18,007 bases of DNA from Clostridia bacterium (GTDB lineage: Bacteria > Bacillota > Clostridia > Christensenellales > Aristaeellaceae): the NCBI GenBank assembly GCA_045617125.1, contig JAZLIA010000019.1:1-18007 (forward strand), written 5' to 3'. The position numbers and the translations under genes are program-made. Each line of letters opens with the position of its first letter. The first letter of the stretch is position 1. A model generated the notes under the pieces. It did no database searches. It was not told the origin of the DNA and worked only from the letters and a program-made list of their open reading frames with translations. Shown piece after piece: positions 2,611 to 8,668 of the stretch.

Positions 2611-4509
2611 TCAATTCTTTCCTGTTTTTTTCTTCTTGCGGTGATGACGGATGGGCAGCACGATCGCACACACGATGGCGATAAGAAGCACGGCGGCTCC
2701 GCCGATCAAAAGAGGAATGATGGGGGTGGCGGTGCCGGGATGCGAGATCGCTTTGATCCCGTTTTCGCTCACCTTGATTTTGCGGCCCTGAGGGCTGGAA
2801 TAAACATCAGGAAGAAGGGAAACGCCGTCCGCGTCTTTATCGAAGCTCATGAGATAATCGCGGAACGCCGCCCATTCCTTGAGCTCGTTCCCATTTTGAT
2901 CCAGAAGCTCCATTTCGTACAGATCTGTGACAGGGGTGCCGTCGGAATTCACCGGGGTGATCGTAAGAATGCCCTTGGTGAGGCCGTTGAGCATGCCCAG
3001 CATGTTGATGGCATACATGTTGGCGGCGACGCGGTAGAGCTTTTTATTGTCGATCTTTTCACGGGTGCCGTCTTTGCGAACAAGACAGATATCGGTGATG
3101 CGGTCCAGAAGGACACGCTCGGTGTTGAAGGTGTATGTGAGACCCGCATAGCTCATTTTGATGGAGCTTACCATGGGGCCGAGGCTGGCGTCCAGCTCGC
3201 ACAGCAGCTTCAGCTCCCTGCCGGTGATCCATGCGCTCACGATGGGATGACCGGCGCTGCCGTCGGCGCCCACGCCCAGGGAGCAGATCTCGAAGGCATC
3301 GGCTGTGGTGATATCACCCTTGCGGATGGAGCCGCGAATGGTGCCAAGACCTACCAACGCCACGTCGATATCGGTGATGCCCGCCTGCTCCGCCGCGTAA
3401 AGATAGGAATCGGCGATCAGGTCGCCGGTGGTGTATTCCTGATGAGTGGCATACATTTCATCCAAAGGGATCATATCGAAGGAGGAACGGCAGATCACCG
3501 TGTCAAAATCGGTGGGAGAGGATGAAAGATAGGTGTCGTTCACGACCTTGCGGAAGGCGTCCACCTTCTCCGCCATTGCGGGGTCTTCCCTGACGGAACC
3601 GTCAACGGGAAGGAGACGGTATTCCTTTACCTTTACTTTCCCGTTCTCCACTGTGAAGGTGAGCTTTCCCAGGTTGGACAGGTATTCGCCGCAGCAGACG
3701 ATCACGGTGTCGCCCACAAGAGCAGGCTCCCGATAGGCGCTGTGGGTGTGCCCGCTTACGATGATATCGATATCCGGCACCGCCCTGGCCAGTTCCGCGT
3801 CTTCCCCTTCGCCCAAGGAAGAGGTGCCGGTGTGGGACAGAACAATGATCACATCGCAGCCGTTTTCCAGCATTTCAGGAACCCATTTCTGCGCGGTTTC
3901 GATATAATCGCTGAAGCTCACGTCACTTTGTACACATTCGATGGAATCATAGCCCATCAGGCCCAGTACGCCGATCTTGTGACTGCCTTTTTCTATCACG
4001 GTGTAGGGCTTCACTCTGGCTGCTTGAAGAGCGTCCTTCAGTTGCTGCTGTTCCTGTGTAAGCTCACCTGTCAAATTCAGGTTGGCCTGAACAAGCGTGG
4101 GTACCTTTTCTTCGCATGCGGCGTAAGAACGCAGCATTTCAGCTACTCCGGAGGCGCCGTAATCAAATTCGTGATTTCCCAGCGTGGTCACCTCGCAGCC
4201 GCACAGGCCCAGCATGCCCAGCTCAAAGGCATCGGTAAAAATGGATTGAAACAGGGTGCCCATGGAAAAATCACCGGCATCCAGGTACAGGGTGTTTTCG
4301 TCACGATTTTCTTCTATCAGGGTCATCAGCCGTGCCGCGCCGCCATGCTCAAGCAGACCGGAGCTGCTCTGCGAAACGGTGGGATAATAGTAATCGTGTA
4401 TATCATGGGTAAAAAGCAGGGTAAGCGTTTCGTCCTGAGCGGCAAAGACCGGCATGCTGCAGCACAGCAAAACGAAGCAAAGCAGGAAACAGAGTGTTTT
4501 TTTGAGCAT
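2611..4509 (-). CDS. Secreted bifunctional metallophosphatase / 5'-nucleotidase (UshA/CD73 family) with a C-terminal membrane anchor
   Basis: 632-aa ORF. The N-terminal signal peptide is MLKKTLCFLLCFVLLCCSMPVFA/AQD. Calcineurin-like phosphoesterase motifs are present: THDIHD, DAGDFSMGT, GNHEFDYG, LSHTG, SGHTHS. A 5'-nucleotidase C-terminal-like half follows. The C-terminal hydrophobic helix PIIPLLIGGAAVLLIAIVCAIVLPI is followed by RHHRKKKKTGKN. The RBS GGAGG lies 9 nt upstream of the ATG at 4509. Confidence 0.9.
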   Translation of the reverse strand: MLKKTLCFLLCFVLLCCSMPVFAAQDETLTLLFTHDIHDYYYPTVSQSSSGLLEHGGAARLMTLIEENRDENTLYLDAGDFSMGTLFQSIFTDAFELGMLGLCGCEVTTLGNHEFDYGASGVAEMLRSYAACEEKVPTLVQANLNLTGELTQEQQQLKDALQAARVKPYTVIEKGSHKIGVLGLMGYDSIECVQSDVSFSDYIETAQKWVPEMLENGCDVIIVLSHTGTSSLGEGEDAELARAVPDIDIIVSGHTHSAYREPALVGDTVIVCCGEYLSNLGKLTFTVENGKVKVKEYRLLPVDGSVREDPAMAEKVDAFRKVVNDTYLSSSPTDFDTVICRSSFDMIPLDEMYATHQEYTTGDLIADSYLYAAEQAGITDIDVALVGLGTIRGSIRKGDITTADAFEICSLGVGADGSAGHPIVSAWITGRELKLLCELDASLGPMVSSIKMSYAGLTYTFNTERVLLDRITDICLVRKDGTREKIDNKKLYRVAANMYAINMLGMLNGLTKGILTITPVNSDGTPVTDLYEMELLDQNGNELKEWAAFRDYLMSFDKDADGVSLLPDVYSSPQGRKIKVSENGIKAISHPGTATPIIPLLIGGAAVLLIAIVCAIVLPIRHHRKKKKTGKN

Positions 4510-4541
4510 ATCATGATTCCTCCGAGAGTAAGATCATGAAT

Positions 4542-4572
4542 ATTATAACACGTATTTCGGTATTTGCTTCAA
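4542..4572 (-). promoter_or_regulatory. Putative extended -10 promoter for the 5'-nucleotidase gene
   Basis: The minus strand reads TTGAAG (4572-4567), a 19-nt spacer ending in TGT, then TATAAT (4547-4542). This is a TGnTATAAT extended -10. The spacer to the -35 is long, so that element is weak. Confidence 0.4.
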
Positions 4573-4690
4573 TTCTTTTATGAACGGCCGTTTTTTTCCG
4601 CTACCGCGGTTCACGATAGCCTTTCCATATCGGCACCGTCACCGTATTTTCATACTGTCAGGGTACGCCGAATATGCCGAAAACAGGGGG

Positions 4691-4719
4691 TTGACAAAAG
4701 CGGATTTGGCGGGTATACT
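4691..4719 (+). promoter_or_regulatory. Near-consensus sigma-A promoter for the small ORF / GNAT unit
   Basis: TTGACA (4691-4696), an exact 17-nt spacer, then TATACT (4714-4719). It is followed by the strong RBS AAGGAGGGAGG (4734-4744). Confidence 0.65.
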
Positions 4720-4752
4720 GCAAACCATATTTCAAGGAGGGAGGAACGGCCG

Positions 4753-4860
4753 ATGATCCGCGCTGCGCTGTCTTATAACGGTACGAATGATAACTGGGAC
4801 GTTTATGGTAACGGCTCTGATTTTTCGTATTTGTTTCAGGCAGCGGAAAAAGACGTGTAA
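4753..4860 (+). CDS. 35-aa small ORF, either a candidate leader peptide or a micropeptide (MIRAALSYNGTNDNWDVYGNGSDFSYLFQAAEKDV)
   Basis: The ATG at 4753 lies 8 nt after a GGAGG-rich RBS and about 27 nt after the predicted transcription start of the 4691-4719 promoter. The stop is TAA at 4858-4860, 20 nt before a strong terminator hairpin. I recognise no family. The longer 98-aa version in the track (4564..) begins upstream of the promoter and has no RBS. Confidence 0.45.
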   Translation: MIRAALSYNGTNDNWDVYGNGSDFSYLFQAAEKDV

Positions 4861-4880
4861 TCGACCGGGAACATCCCGCC

Positions 4881-4917
4881 AATCGCCTGCCTGAAACGGC
4901 AGGCGATTTTATTTTTC
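4881..4917 (+). terminator. Rho-independent terminator (candidate attenuator) between the small ORF and the GNAT genes
   Basis: A perfect 11-bp stem pairs AATCGCCTGCC (4881-4891) with GGCAGGCGATT (4898-4908) around the 6-nt loop TGAAAC. It is followed by TTATTTTT. Confidence 0.75.
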
Positions 4918-4951
4918 CAGAAGATGGACAGCAGAAAGGAAGAAAAAGACG

Positions 4952-5422
4952 ATGATACGCAAGGCGACGATGAAGGATGCGGAACGGGTGAACGAACTAA
5001 GGAAGATGGTGAACGACATTCATGTGGAAGGCCGGCCGGATATTTTCAGGCCCGGTTTTTGTCAGGAATTGCAGGACCAGGTGATGAACTACATCGATCA
5101 GGAAAACTTTGGGATCCTGCTGGAGGAGCAGGATGGGGAGATCCGCGGCATGGTGATGCTCGACTGGATCGACCGGCCTGAGTCTCCTTACAATCGGGCC
5201 CGTAAGTTCTGTCATGTGGCGGAGATCGCAGTGGATGAACGCTTCCGCAGGATGGGAGTGGGGAAAGCCCTGATGGAAGGGATGAAGACGGAATGCCGAA
5301 AGCGCGGCGTCAAACGGATCGAACTGGACGTGTGGGCATTCAATGACGCGCTGGCGTTTTATGAAGCAGAAGGGTTTACGGTATTCAGGAGGTTTATGGA
5401 ATATGAAGTTGAAGATGCTTGA
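4952..5422 (+). CDS. GNAT family N-acetyltransferase (single domain, 156 aa)
   Basis: An acetyl-CoA binding motif A-like block is present: VDERFRRMGVGKALMEGMKTECRKRGVKRIELDVWAFNDALAFYEAEGF. The RBS AAGGAAG lies upstream of the ATG at 4952. Size and layout are typical of GNAT proteins. Confidence 0.9.
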   Translation: MIRKATMKDAERVNELRKMVNDIHVEGRPDIFRPGFCQELQDQVMNYIDQENFGILLEEQDGEIRGMVMLDWIDRPESPYNRARKFCHVAEIAVDERFRRMGVGKALMEGMKTECRKRGVKRIELDVWAFNDALAFYEAEGFTVFRRFMEYEVEDA

Positions 5423-6389
5423 TCTGGAACAGGCCGGGAAGGTCTATGAATTCGTTTCGGCGATGCCTGCTGACGAGAACGGGTTTGGGTCGGAATTTTC
5501 CGGGTGTACGCGGGAAGAGTTTGTCCGCCTGGTGGAACGCGCGGAAAAAGCGCGGCGCGGGGAAGATCTGCCGGCGGGATGGGTGCCCCAGACGCAGTAT
5601 ATCCTGTGGAACGATGAGGATATTCCGGTCGGGCTGTTCCATTTCCGTCAGCATCTATGCCCTTCGCTGAGAGAGAGGAGCGGACATATCGGCTATGCCA
5701 TCCGGGAAGGATACCGGGGACGGGGGTATGCTGCCGAGGGCCTTCGGCTGATGATCGAGGAAGCAAAAAAGACCGTGCCGGAGCCTGAGCTGCTCCTTGG
5801 CGCATTAAAGAGCAACAAGGCTTCGCTCGCGGTGCAGAAAAAGAACGGTGCGATCCCCATGCTGGAAACGGAGGATTACCTGCTGAGTCGGATCCCGCTG
5901 GAGCGGACCCGGGTCCCGATCGTTGCGGGAGAGGATAGCCCTTTTTTTGAAGTTGACGGTATGACGGATGGCGAGGTCATGCTGAAGGTGGAGAAACTGA
6001 GCCCTGCGGACCCGGAAAAGCAATGGCTGCCCGCGTATCATTTCTTTATCTGTCTAACGGACGGGACCCGGATCGGCAGCTGTGACCTTCGGCTGGGCCA
6101 TAACGAGAAGATCTATTATGGCGGAAATATCGGTTACAGCGTGGATGAACCGTATCGCGGGCACCGGTATGCCGCCAGGGCGGTAGGTCTGCTGAGAAAA
6201 CTGGCGGCGAGGCACGGGATGGATTTTGTGCTTATCACCTGCGACTGGCAGAACGCCGCTTCGGCGCGAACCTGTGAACTGGCAGGATGCAGGTATATCG
6301 AAACCGTGGAGCTTCCGGAATATAACGATATGTACCGGGAAGGCATGAGAAAAGTGATGGTATGGCAGCTGATGAGTATGAAGGAATAA
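5403..6389 (+). CDS. Tandem-domain GNAT acetyltransferase (two RimJ/RimL-like Acetyltransf_3-type halves, about 328 aa)
   Basis: The first half contains GHIGYAIREGYRGRGYAAEGLRLMIEEAKK...LKSNKASLAVQKKNGA. The second half contains GNIGYSVDEPYRGHRYAARAVGLLRKLAARHG...DWQNAASARTCELAGCRY. Both match the pattern IGY-(x5)-RG-(x)-GYA...N-(x2)-S-(x5)-GF/C. I place the start at ATG 5403, 10 nt after AGGAGG (5387-5392), overlapping the upstream GNAT gene by 20 nt. The track's start at 5343 has no RBS. Confidence 0.85.
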   Translation: MKLKMLDLEQAGKVYEFVSAMPADENGFGSEFSGCTREEFVRLVERAEKARRGEDLPAGWVPQTQYILWNDEDIPVGLFHFRQHLCPSLRERSGHIGYAIREGYRGRGYAAEGLRLMIEEAKKTVPEPELLLGALKSNKASLAVQKKNGAIPMLETEDYLLSRIPLERTRVPIVAGEDSPFFEVDGMTDGEVMLKVEKLSPADPEKQWLPAYHFFICLTDGTRIGSCDLRLGHNEKIYYGGNIGYSVDEPYRGHRYAARAVGLLRKLAARHGMDFVLITCDWQNAASARTCELAGCRYIETVELPEYNDMYREGMRKVMVWQLMSMKE

Positions 6390-6407
6390 CAGGAGCTGCC
6401 AACCCCT

Positions 6408-6857
6408 TTATTGCAGGATGGCCCGGCACAGGGTCTCGGCAAAGCTTTCGAGACCGATACGGTCCTCTTCAGTGAAACGGTTTAGATCCGGGCTGTCCAG
6501 ATCCAGTACGCCGATGATGCGTCCGTCCTGGTGCAGGGGGATCACCAACTCGGAATTGGAAGCACTGTCACAGGCAATGTGGCCGAGAAACCGGTGGACA
6601 TCGGGAACCAGGATGGAACGATCCTCTTTCACGGCGGTGCCGCAGACACCTCGGCCGACAGAGATCTCGATGCAGGCGGGTTTGCCCTGGAAGGGACCAA
6701 GAACGAGACGATCGCCTCTAAGATAGTAGAAACCGGCCCAGTTGAGGCGGTCCAACCGCTGCCAGATCAGGGCTGAGGCATTGGCAAGATTGGCAACGCC
6801 ATGGGGAACGCCTTCGGTGAGAGCGGCGATCTCGCGCGTTAGGGAAACATAATCCAT
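6408..6857 (-). CDS. msrC: GAF-domain free methionine-(R)-sulfoxide reductase (YebR/MsrC family)
   Basis: The protein runs MDYVSLTREIAALTEG...NWAGFYYLRGDRLVLGPFQGKPACIEISVGRGVCGTAV...HIACDSASNSELVIPL...IGVLDLDSPDLNRFTEEDRIGLE. This closely follows the conserved fRMsr blocks, FQGK-x-AC-x-x-I-x-x-GRGVCGTA and HIACD-x-ASNSE-x-V-x-PL, including the three catalytic/resolving Cys positions. The start at ATG 6857 is preceded by AAGAGGTG. The track's start at 6953 would overlap the upstream gene. Confidence 0.85.
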   Translation of the reverse strand: MDYVSLTREIAALTEGVPHGVANLANASALIWQRLDRLNWAGFYYLRGDRLVLGPFQGKPACIEISVGRGVCGTAVKEDRSILVPDVHRFLGHIACDSASNSELVIPLHQDGRIIGVLDLDSPDLNRFTEEDRIGLESFAETLCRAILQ

Positions 6858-6876
6858 GGAAAAGCACCTCTTATCT

Positions 6877-8379
6877 TTATTCGTTTGTGCGTTCCTCCGG
6901 GAAGGCGGAAAGAAGCGGTTCCACATCGGTTTTTCCCTTGATGCGGCGGTCAATATAGTTTTTTGTGATCTTTCTTACCATTCCGCACAGAGCAACGACG
7001 CCGATCAGGTTGGGGAGTGACATCAATCCGTTGAAGGTATCGCTCAGGTCGATCGCCAGGCTGGTATCCAGGATGGAGGAAAACAATATGGCGGCAATGA
7101 ACACCACCTTGTACACCCAGGTGGAACGGGTGCCGAACAGGAATTCCCAGGCTTTTTTGCCGTAGAAGCTCCATCCCAGAACGGTGCTGAAAGCAAACAG
7201 TGTGACGGCAATGGCGATAAAGATCCCGCCGAAGGAACCGAAGTTTTTGGTAAAGGCTTCGGTGGCCAGGCCCAGCTTCGTGGCTCCGGTGAGAGATGCG
7301 CCGGTGTTCAGGTCCACGATCCCGCTGGTGAGGATCACCAGCGCGGTGAGGGTGCAAACGATGAGGGTGTCCACAAACACCTCAAAAATGCCCCACAGGC
7401 CCTGAGCGACCGGTTCCTTCACGTCGGAGGCGGAATGGACCATCACAGAAGAACCTAGCCCGGCTTCATTGCTGAACACGCCGCGCTTGAAGCCCCAGCT
7501 CATGGCTTCGGCGATCACTGCGCCGCCGATGCCGCCGGCAGCGGAGCGGAAGTTGAATGCGCCGCGGAAAATGGAGCCCAGTGCCGGCAGGAGCTGATCG
7601 ATATTCATGAACACAATGATCAGGGAACCCGCAATATAGAACAGGGCCATGAAGGGGACGATCTTTTCGTTGGTTTCCGCAATGCGCTTCAGACCGCCCA
7701 GAATGACCAGCGCCGCTACGATGAGCAGAATGGCTCCGATGATCAGGCTGCCTGTGCGGCTGCTGTTCAGGGAGGCATCACCGGAGAGGCTGGCGGCTAC
7801 GTTCAGCACGCTTTCGCGGATGGACGATATCTGCCCCATGTTGCCGATGCCGAAGGAAGCCATAACGGCAAATACCGAGAACAGCACGGCCAGCACCTTG
7901 CCGAGCGTTTTGCAGTGAGGCTTGCTGCCAAGGCCGTCTTTGAGGTAATACATAGCTCCGCCGCACCATTCGTTCTCCTTGTTGCGGCGGCGGTAAAAAA
8001 TTCCCAGCACATTTTCGGAATAGTTGGTCATCATGCCCACGATAGCGGCGATCCACATCCAGAACACAGCGCCGGGCCCGCCCATTGTGATGGCATAGGC
8101 TACACCGGCGATGTTGCCGGTGCCGATGGTGGCGGAAAGAGCGGTGCACAGAGCCTGAAACTGGCTGATGCTGTGCTTGTCAGAGGATTTTACGGTCTTT
8201 TTTGAGAAGAGCTTTCCAATGGTTTCCTTCATCGTGTGACCGAAGTGGGTGAACTGGAAAAAACCGGTCAGCACTGTCATGAGCACCCCTGTGCCGATGA
8301 GCAGTGTGAGTGCGGGAGCCCCCCATACCACGTCGTTTACCGCCGTATTGATCTGGGAAATGACAGAAGTGACATCCAT
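6877..8379 (-). CDS. Alanine/glycine:cation (sodium) symporter, AGCS family
   Basis: The protein is multi-pass. It carries the AGCS signature region ISQFQALCTALSATIGTGNIAGVAYAITMGGPGAVFWMWI. It lies downstream of a glycine riboswitch. I place the start at ATG 8379 (MDVTSVISQINTAVNDVVWG...), 7 nt after AAGAGGG. Confidence 0.9.
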   Translation of the reverse strand: MDVTSVISQINTAVNDVVWGAPALTLLIGTGVLMTVLTGFFQFTHFGHTMKETIGKLFSKKTVKSSDKHSISQFQALCTALSATIGTGNIAGVAYAITMGGPGAVFWMWIAAIVGMMTNYSENVLGIFYRRRNKENEWCGGAMYYLKDGLGSKPHCKTLGKVLAVLFSVFAVMASFGIGNMGQISSIRESVLNVAASLSGDASLNSSRTGSLIIGAILLIVAALVILGGLKRIAETNEKIVPFMALFYIAGSLIIVFMNIDQLLPALGSIFRGAFNFRSAAGGIGGAVIAEAMSWGFKRGVFSNEAGLGSSVMVHSASDVKEPVAQGLWGIFEVFVDTLIVCTLTALVILTSGIVDLNTGASLTGATKLGLATEAFTKNFGSFGGIFIAIAVTLFAFSTVLGWSFYGKKAWEFLFGTRSTWVYKVVFIAAILFSSILDTSLAIDLSDTFNGLMSLPNLIGVVALCGMVRKITKNYIDRRIKGKTDVEPLLSAFPEERTNE

Positions 8380-8423
8380 ATAAAAGCCCTCTTTTCTGTA
8401 TTCTGAATACGGGAGCTTTTCTG

Positions 8424-8456
8424 CAATCAAAAAGCGGAGAGATATCCCTCTCCGCA
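8424..8456 (-). terminator. Intrinsic terminator forming the expression platform of the glycine riboswitch
   Basis: The minus strand reads GCGGAGAG-GGATAT-CTCTCCGC (8455-8434) followed by TTTTTGATTG. It lies between the second aptamer and the symporter RBS. Confidence 0.65.
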
Positions 8457-8493: not shown

Positions 8494-8668
8494 TTCCGTC
8501 CTTTTGCCTGAGAGATTCAGCTTTTTACAGCTGTTGCACCTTCGGCACCGCCCCGTTTCCGGGCGGATTCTCCGGAATGCCGTCCGCGTACAGTCTTTTT
8601 ACCTGAGAGTGTTGCTCCTTCGGCGTTCCCTGGGGAACCTTTCCTGCACGCTTCCTTCGGCCCGTATT
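8494..8668 (-). promoter_or_regulatory. Tandem glycine riboswitch (two aptamers)
   Basis: Aptamer 1, read on the minus strand, is GCGUGCAG-GAAAGGUUCCCCAGGGAACGCCGAAGGAGCAACACUCUCAGGUAAAAAGA-CUGUACGC, with an 8-bp P1 helix. Aptamer 2 is CCGGAGAAUCCGCCCGGAAACGGGGCGGUGCCGAAGGUGCAACAGCUGUAAAAAGCUGAAUCUCUCAGGCAAAAGGACGG. Both carry the conserved CCGAAGG-x-GCAA and CUCUCAGG-x-AAAAGGAC cores. The genomic context, upstream of an AGCS symporter, is the classic one. Confidence 0.85.

Follow-up and report, generated by a model that had tools for sequence, protein, structure and literature searches.

The window analyzed here is an 18,007-nucleotide (nt) stretch of DNA from a Clostridia bacterium (contig JAZLIA010000019.1 of assembly GCA_045617125.1), and its + strand carries, between positions 4691 and 4951, a leader region that precedes two acetyltransferase genes of the GNAT family and is a candidate ribosome-mediated transcription attenuator. 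The leader begins with a sigma-70-type promoter (4691-4719), composed of a -35 hexamer TTGACA (4691-4696), a 17-nt spacer and a -10 hexamer TATACT (4714-4719), which matched 11 of 12 consensus positions in a promoter scan and is the single good + strand promoter within 4300-6600. Transcription would start near 4726, about 7 nt past the -10 box. The Shine-Dalgarno (SD) sequence AAGGAGGGAGG (4734-4744) lies 8 nt 5′ of an ATG at 4753, which opens a leader open reading frame (ORF) of 35 codons plus TAA (4753-4860, stop codon 4858-4860) encoding the peptide MIRAALSYNGTNDNWDVYGNGSDFSYLFQAAEKDV. An intrinsic terminator (4881-4916) starts 20 nt past the stop codon, and the first regulated gene, GNAT1 (4952-5422), encodes a 156-amino acid N-acetyltransferase (Pfam Acetyltransf_1, E = 1.4e-16). 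GNAT2 (about 5403-6389) encodes ~328 amino acids with two GNAT domains, where Pfam Acetyltransf_3 (E = 1.4e-22) and Acetyltransf_1 each match two stretches; its start codon is at 5403 or 5415 and overlaps the end of GNAT1, so GNAT2 is probably translationally coupled to GNAT1. A first-pass annotation of the window had described the near-consensus promoter, the strong ribosome-binding site with its 35-codon ORF and the two GNAT genes, and each of these was recovered in our scans and Pfam searches.

Comparison drew on 13 further loci from uncultured Clostridia (L001-L005 and L015-L022), which together with the window provide 11 distinct leader sequences. The -35 hexamer is the same in all 11 leaders, and the -10 hexamer reads TATACT, TATATT or TATAGT. 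The first-pass annotation saw no promoter between the terminator and the GNAT1 ATG at 4952, and our scan of this gap in the window likewise returned no promoter-like site. A separate GNAT1 promoter was rejected, since no + strand promoter able to serve GNAT1 was found 3′ of the terminator in the window, L001 or L016. The distance between terminator and GNAT1 is 22-40 nt in loci other than L001 and L016, and only about 22 nt in L004. In L001 and L016 the leader terminator is separated from GNAT1 by an additional 130-240 nt (2812-3000 in L001, 2655-2738 in L016), an AT-rich insert with short repeats GAATTATGAATTATGAATGATAAGTGATGAATT, to which L001 adds a GC-rich repeated block.

Several features suggest that the leader ORF is translated. 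Within the SD, GGGAGGAACGG is invariant in 11/11 sequences, as are the ATG and the TAA, and the ORF keeps a length of 34-36 codons. The ORF contains just two indels among the 11 leaders, one deletion and one insertion of 3 nt each, and the frame is kept across both, although nucleotide divergence among the neighboring GNAT1 genes reaches 30%. The invariant signals and the frame-keeping indels, set against this divergence of GNAT1, therefore argue for a translated frame rather than a chance ORF, and the frame conservation in relatives by which the first-pass annotation proposed to judge the ORF is present. Other annotation pipelines have also called the leader peptide as a gene of 34-36 amino acids, in 8 protein clusters.

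Alternative pairings of the leader RNA

The terminator was picked up both by a terminator scan and by a repeat finder. Its stem (4881-4891 with 4898-4908) is a perfect 11-bp helix with 7 G-C pairs, closed by a 6-nt loop (4892-4897) and followed by the U-tract TTATTTTT (4909-4916), and its stability is -20.5 kcal/mol. The perfect helix and T-run of the first-pass annotation are thus found by both methods, and every pair of the stem is kept in all 11 sequences, with compensatory changes at three pairs of the lower stem and a covariation score that was reached in 0 of 500 shuffles. These changes are confined to the lower stem that the terminator does not share with the alternative helix described below, while the upper stem (CUGCC) and the loop, which are shared, are frozen. 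Transcripts that end here would be expected to terminate at about 4910-4916 in vivo. In L019, whose leader is otherwise identical to that of L020, a 3-nt GAA insertion lies in the terminator loop (CUGAAGAAACGG, about 2640-2650) and makes the contiguous antiterminator pairing shorter.

The alternative helix is the antiterminator that the first-pass annotation proposed from an 11-nt complementarity, and a repeat finder returned the same match: GTTTCAGGCAG at 4833-4843 is the exact reverse complement of CTGCCTGAAAC at 4887-4897. The 5′ arm of the antiterminator (GUUUCAGGCAG, 4833-4843) spans codons 27-31 of the leader ORF and lies within what we call segment 2 (4825-4845, codons 25-31). The 3′ arm, or segment 3 (CUGCCUGAAAC, 4887-4897), comprises the distal 5 nt of the terminator 5′ arm and the entire terminator loop. 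An exact complement of at least 11 nt between 4881-4897 and the 155 nt upstream arose in 2 of 20,000 dinucleotide-preserving shuffles, and the analytic estimate is 2.4e-4, in agreement with the chance expectation of roughly 1e-5 to 1e-4 given earlier. Ten core pairs of this helix, which has a stability of -15.6 kcal/mol, are kept in 11/11 sequences. One of them, 4835-4895, occurs either as U-A (six sequences) or as A-U (five), and is never unpaired; as a control, sliding the partner strand by 1-3 columns drops the pairing from 93% to 31-43%. The change of U4835 to A turns codon 28 from Phe into Tyr, and A4895 in the terminator loop changes in step, so coding constraint alone is insufficient to explain the pattern. 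The two states define leader type A (U-A; the window, L002, L018, L019, L020 and L022) and leader type B (A-U; L001, L016, L004, L015 and L005). The comparison of relatives that the first-pass annotation called for is therefore informative for both helices, with one swapped pair in the antiterminator and three compensatory pairs in the terminator, and it supports the proposed role of the upstream arm.

A third helix, missed by the first-pass annotation, is predicted to capture the antiterminator arm. This ORF-internal hairpin pairs segment 1 (4769-4786, codons 6-12; extended in the window to 4766-4787) with 4825-4842 (codons 25-30), has a stability of about -28 kcal/mol in the window, and is 95% paired over the 11 sequences. 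It is present in both the minimum free energy (MFE) structure of the window and the RNAalifold consensus. When 4726-4920 was folded, as the first-pass annotation suggested, the MFE structure lacked the proposed antiterminator, and 4833-4845 was instead paired to the beginning of the ORF; the antiterminator does form in nascent folds with a modeled ribosome on codons 1-15. In the absence of a ribosome the hairpin would sequester the antiterminator arm and so serve as an anti-antiterminator, giving the leader a four-segment layout like those of trp and bmrB.

Within this hairpin, an inner hairpin formed by GGGACGUU and AACGGCUC (4796-4817) is 100% paired in 11/11 sequences and is followed by the conserved, unpaired U-tract UGAUUUUU (4818-4825). 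By analogy, the whole element (4796-4825) may act as an RNA polymerase pause signal that gives the ribosome time to load, in the manner of the trp leader pause hairpin and of the NusG-dependent pauses described for vmlR and yxjB. The RNAalifold consensus also pairs ACCG past the stop codon (4864-4867) with CGGU/CGGC before the ATG (4747-4750), which could close the ORF into one domain. This pairing is 97% paired in the 11 sequences without covariation, has one C-A mismatch in the window, and is lengthened in L005 to 7 bp (CGGUCAU/AUGACCG). In addition, CCC at 4875-4877 is complementary to the SD GGG at 4739-4741. The finished leader RNA could in this way close the whole ORF and mask its SD, a possibility of uncertain significance.

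The covariation between a codon and a terminator loop bears on another explanation, namely that the ORF is a free-standing small-protein gene with a promoter and terminator of its own, encoding a signaling peptide, a substrate of the GNATs resembling a ribosomally synthesized and post-translationally modified peptide (RiPP), or an antitoxin-like partner. The GNATs would then be expressed through constitutive partial read-through and the complementarity would be non-regulatory. Conservation of the peptide is similar to that of GNAT1 (between the two clades, amino acid identity is 56-69% for the peptide and 65-68% for GNAT1), and twelve peptide residues are invariant (M1, I2, L6, D16, V17, N20, G21, S22, S25, Y26, Q29 and A30). 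A model for RiPP N-acetyltransferases matches GNAT1 weakly and non-specifically, with a score far under the model cut-off, and peptide gene clusters commonly have leaky terminators behind their small structural genes. A purely coding role, however, does not predict a terminator loop that co-varies with an ORF codon. Synonymous sites in the leader are also unusually conserved: where two leaders share an amino acid they use the same codon in 72-86% of cases, compared to 53-67% in GNAT1, and G4833 is an invariant third-codon base although six residues (L, M, R, Q, S and T) are encoded at this codon among the homologs. Searches of Pfam and NCBIfam with the peptide gave no family match, and among the operon genes called in related loci there is neither a transporter nor a RiPP-type leader protease, and no further modification enzyme, peptidase genes being present in these loci as separate opposite-strand neighbors only. 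We consider a free-standing small-protein gene very improbable.

Ribosome position and the proposed switch

When the full leader was folded to equilibrium with a ribosome footprint placed at each codon, the terminator always beat the antiterminator (-20.5 vs -15.6 kcal/mol). Because the terminator is the stronger structure at every footprint position, the switch has to be kinetic, and we modeled it by folding nascent transcripts with a 3′ end at 4897-4902, where segment 3 has just emerged, and a 27-nt ribosome footprint. In the window, the antiterminator has a probability of 0.005-0.13 in ribosome-free folds of this kind. The value rises to 0.5-1.0 when the P site occupies codons 1-15 and is about 0 for P sites at codons 24-34; in the model, a ribosome on segment 1 releases segment 2. 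All 11 homologs follow the same trend, and share the ORF hairpin, which is conserved but does not covary. The first-pass annotation had reasoned that a ribosome stalled early in the ORF would leave the antiterminator arm free, and the modeled behavior at codons 1-15 agrees with this. It had also reasoned that a ribosome over codons 27-35 or on the stop codon would allow the terminator to form; this is borne out with the P site on codons 24-34, while the stop-codon position proved unreliable in the model.

From this comparative evidence, we estimate a probability of roughly 0.7 that the leader governs the two-gene GNAT operon through ribosome-mediated transcription attenuation of the trp/bmrB type. 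In the proposed mechanism, segments 1 (4769-4786), 2 (4825-4845), 3 (4887-4897) and 4 (4898-4908) would form the alternative pairings 1:2, 2:3 (the antiterminator) and 3:4 (the terminator). With no ribosome, 1:2 and then 3:4 would form and transcription would end at about 4910-4916. A ribosome that passes unhindered through codons 24-35 would leave segment 2 either covered or retaken by segment 1, again leading to termination. If a ribosome is instead held between the start codon and roughly codon 15-22, segment 1 would be occupied and segment 2 free as segment 3 emerges, and once 2:3 is made before segment 4 appears, RNA polymerase would read into GNAT1-GNAT2. The conserved inner hairpin and U-tract (4796-4825) may pause the polymerase so that the ribosome loads in time. 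The signal that slows the ribosome may be a translation inhibitor, a shortage of Asn- or Asp-tRNA, or general translation stress, and under such conditions read-through into GNAT1-GNAT2 would be expected in vivo.

Several observations weigh against the attenuator, and some concern the antiterminator itself. Its covariation consists of one pair that tracks one split, between leader types A and B, so the 4835-4895 swap represents a single evolutionary event. Of the 11 nt in the terminator 5′ arm, the antiterminator takes up just 5, and its stability falls about 5 kcal/mol short of that of the terminator, for which reason segment 4 could displace the antiterminator by branch migration. In L018, L020 and L004 the antiterminator probability with no ribosome is already 0.4-0.6. 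With a ribosome on the stop codon, the footprint extends no further back than about 4843 and barely covers the antiterminator arm, and for many homologs a ribosome at this position fails to block the antiterminator in the model. The ORF-internal hairpin is without compensatory changes in the 11 sequences, so that conservation is what speaks for it, and the excess of invariant columns among paired positions of the ORF (35/42 paired vs 24/60 unpaired, p = 1e-5) comes from a partly circular test, as the consensus fold penalizes variable columns. Finally, the 11 sequences all come from one narrow clade.

The same conservation pattern could be read differently, with the RNA fold acting as the sensor of a ligand- or protein-controlled antitermination element (a riboswitch or the target of an RNA-binding protein) and the ORF being incidental or modulating. 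Conservation in the ORF follows the RNA stems over the amino acids, and several substitutions change the amino acid while keeping the pair, including Met/Thr at codon 11 (U-G to C-G), the compensated Phe/Tyr swap and the six-residue codon that retains G4833. Conservation of the leader equals or exceeds that of the enzyme gene, and the folding energy of the complete leader is well under that of shuffled sequences (z = -4.5). An untranslated RNA, however, is not expected to keep a near-perfect SD at ideal spacing, an invariant ATG and TAA, and the frame across both indels. The consensus fold amounts in essence to a single long, imperfect hairpin in which neither a multi-helix junction nor a conserved internal-loop pocket is obvious, and a search of 4500-5000 against Rfam 15 with E up to 10 returned nothing beyond small nucleolar RNA and small RNA noise. 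We regard an RNA sensor of this kind as quite unlikely.

The identity of the codons at which a ribosome would be held raises a further option, in which the architecture is that of the proposed attenuator and the stall occurs at Asn (perhaps Asp or Tyr) codons within codons 9-20, when charged tRNA is scarce through starvation or through a synthetase inhibitor that the GNATs detoxify. The first-pass annotation described the peptide as not enriched for a single amino acid, which stands for the window, where there is no run or tandem of identical codons and codons 18-19 are Tyr-Gly; it does not extend to several relatives, as 4 of the 11 sequences, the window not among them, carry Asn-Asn-Asn (AAT AAT AAC) at codons 18-20, and this keeps amino acid sensing in play. 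Asn is over-represented in the zone where a stall would be productive (N9, N12, N14 and N20 in the window, and the Asn-Asn-Asn of the four homologs), D16 is invariant, and these Asn and Asp codons fall where a modeled stall yields the antiterminator. GNAT2 belongs in part to Acetyltransf_3, the RimJ/RimL family, of which the RimL and MccE members acetylate aminoacyl-adenylate mimics, and some loci add a PNP_UDP_1 nucleoside phosphorylase to the operon. Against these points, the window lacks an identical-codon run, the GNATs have no recognizable link to Asn or Asp metabolism, and 4-6 Asn in 35 codons is a statistically mild enrichment. The Asn codons are, moreover, part of conserved RNA stems and may be conserved for that reason, and amino acid sensing and RNA-level constraint are not separable here. 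We view amino acid sensing as unlikely. The amino acid biosynthesis class of attenuators (trp, his, leu, thr) was ruled out, since tandem cognate codons are missing and the GNATs are not biosynthetic.

Related leaders, distribution and implications

The closest analog of the proposed attenuator is the Bacillus subtilis bmrB leader of bmrBCD, where ribosome-mediated transcription attenuation is induced by ribosome-targeting antibiotics (PMC4191407). In both systems a promoter-proximal small ORF is co-transcribed with the regulated genes, mutually exclusive terminator, antiterminator and anti-antiterminator structures lie in or beside the ORF, and the antiterminator is energetically weaker, so that slow translation lets it form (PMC4191407). 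Both are also from Firmicutes, and neither peptide has single-amino acid runs. The differences are that bmrB has 53 codons, a terminator within the coding region and an ABC exporter as the regulated product (PMC4191407), while the present leader has 35 codons, a terminator 20 nt past the stop codon and two GNATs, with no evident sequence similarity between the two. Antibiotic induction has been demonstrated for bmrB and is hypothetical for the present leader.

With E. coli trpL, the proposed attenuator shares the four-segment logic of 1:2, 2:3 and 3:4 pairings, an ORF that overlaps segment 1, and the release of segment 2 by a stall on segment 1. In both, termination follows when there is no translation, and an early hairpin could pause the polymerase and synchronize it with the ribosome. 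Leaders of the trp type carry tandem codons for the end-product of the operon, and their ORF ends before segment 2. Here, in contrast, the ORF spans segments 1 and 2, the window has no tandem codons, and the genes are non-biosynthetic. Translation attenuators such as those of ermC and cat are alike in that a stall in the leader ORF remodels downstream RNA pairing; in those systems the stalled ribosome unmasks the SD of the resistance gene, whereas here regulation would act on an intrinsic terminator and its U-tract, and the SD of GNAT1 (about 4936-4943) is uninvolved, lying outside the alternative pairings. The amino acid attenuators of the trp type (trp, his, leu, thr, ilv, pheA) are discussed further elsewhere (PMC4191407, PMC1183508).

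Antibiotic-responsive leaders also precede vmlR and yxjB/tlrB of B. subtilis, lmo0919 of Listeria, and msrD (PMC9226507, PMC6851288, PMC10314930). According to these papers, the leaders resemble the present one in combining a short upstream ORF with terminator/antiterminator alternatives; a drug-induced stall leads to read-through into the resistance gene, and RNA polymerase pausing is needed so that the ribosome has enough time. They differ in that the regulated genes encode ABC-F proteins or ribosomal RNA methyltransferases, the inducers are known and the sequences are unrelated, and a resistance role for the present GNATs is hypothetical.

Rfam searches of the whole window matched only glycine riboswitches (8494-8656), and four homologous loci gave no match at the gathering score; a known riboswitch, T-box or described leader was rejected on the basis of the Rfam searches. 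Our literature search found no paper on a leader-peptide attenuator before GNAT genes. The first-pass annotation had not recognized the leader as a described one, and neither Rfam nor the literature contradicts this. The leader is most likely a previously undescribed example of a well-known mechanism.

The related loci were collected in two ways. A genome scan with GNAT1 returned two species representatives, the Clostridia metagenome-assembled genomes L001 and L002, both of which carry the promoter, SD, ORF and terminator, and L003-L005 and L015-L022 are contigs fetched via protein searches for GNAT1 homologs and called leader peptides. Searching with the leader peptide returned two proteins with a padded query and 8 clusters with a profile of five peptides, all of the leader-GNAT1-GNAT2 operon type. 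Wherever a locus extends far enough, the leader lies directly 5′ of the same GNAT1-GNAT2 pair, while the gene on its other side varies (5′-nucleotidase, M48 peptidase or pyruvate formate-lyase, PFL), which ties the leader to the GNAT operon. GNAT1 homologs that are 62-66% identical and lie in other contexts (L006/L007, L023 and L024) have no leader and no room for one. A scan of Joint Genome Institute (JGI) metagenomes with the pattern AAYGGYTCYGWTTTTTCGTAT gave seven loci, all unrelated chance matches, and no further leader copies. As far as the searched databases show, the leader appears confined to a narrow group of uncultured Clostridia.

Within this group, leader and gene do not always follow the same relationships. 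The leaders of L001/L016 and L004/L015 are 91-95% identical (95% for L001 and L004), while the adjacent GNAT1 genes are 73% identical. The L001/L016 GNAT1 genes are closer to that of the window (83-85%), though their leaders are only 76-77% identical to the window leader. These discordant signals reflect either very strong constraint on the type B leader or recombination at the boundary between leader and gene. A different leader, not alignable by eye, lies 5′ of a GNAT1 homolog (58% identity, 558-1028) in L025, a Logan contig from SRR27277138. This region (190-470) has a promoter TTGACA-17-TATGAT (194-222), an SD, a 20-codon ORF MMQNLHFAQHNTYYYRRICL (248-310), a very stable fold (z = -6.76) and, at about 419-465, a long hairpin terminator with a U-run; an Rfam search with it gave no match. 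The L025 leader suggests that attenuation-type leaders arose more than once before this GNAT family.

In the window, the operon is flanked upstream by a divergent 5′-nucleotidase/metallophosphatase gene (2611-4509) and downstream, directly after GNAT2, by a GAF-domain gene that converges on the operon end (6408-6953). Between GNAT2 and the convergent GAF gene, the operon is extended in some loci by a PNP_UDP_1 nucleoside phosphorylase gene (L003 4766-5563, L019 4170-4970, L020 3355-4155) or by an MgtC-family gene (L016 4291-4992, and L017). In L017, whose leader is identical to that of L016, GNAT1 is broken into fragments of 50 and 90 amino acids (1307-1777), which points to a frameshift, a pseudogene or a fault in the assembly. 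In a PDB sequence search, the solved structure closest to GNAT1 was BH1408, whose function is unassigned, and the same search with GNAT2 gave no relative. NCBIfam matches for both GNATs are all far below cut-off, including the best of them (ArsN1, AAC and Sat4); no resistance equivalog is matched above its cut-off, and no plasmid match was found for the locus. Elsewhere in the window, two adjacent glycine riboswitch aptamers on the - strand (8494-8656; RF00504, 56.5 and 52.1 bits) lie upstream of a - strand gene of the sodium:alanine symporter family (6877-8430; Pfam Na_Ala_symp, E = 2.7e-134), a typical tandem glycine riboswitch before a transporter gene.

One tentative extension, to which we give little weight, is that the leader is the sensor of an inducible detoxification operon, in which a translation poison stalls the ribosome early in the ORF and thereby induces the GNATs, along with the phosphorylase in some strains, that inactivate the poison. 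Candidate poisons would be an aminoacyl-nucleoside antibiotic, or an aminoacyl-tRNA synthetase inhibitor that gives a shortage of Asn- or Asp-tRNA. Should this hold, the locus would be a new self-inducing resistance module in uncultured Clostridia.

If the proposed attenuator is correct, it would represent a new leader family among ribosome-sensing attenuators, and one from uncultured Clostridia, where few are described. It would also mark two uncharacterized GNATs as genes that are switched on by disturbed translation, with a possible link to antibiotic tolerance, and would offer a route to their substrates through screening compounds or starvation conditions for induced read-through. As the mechanism is a textbook one, the conceptual gain would be modest, and the practical value would lie in a testable regulatory hook on an orphan acetyltransferase operon.

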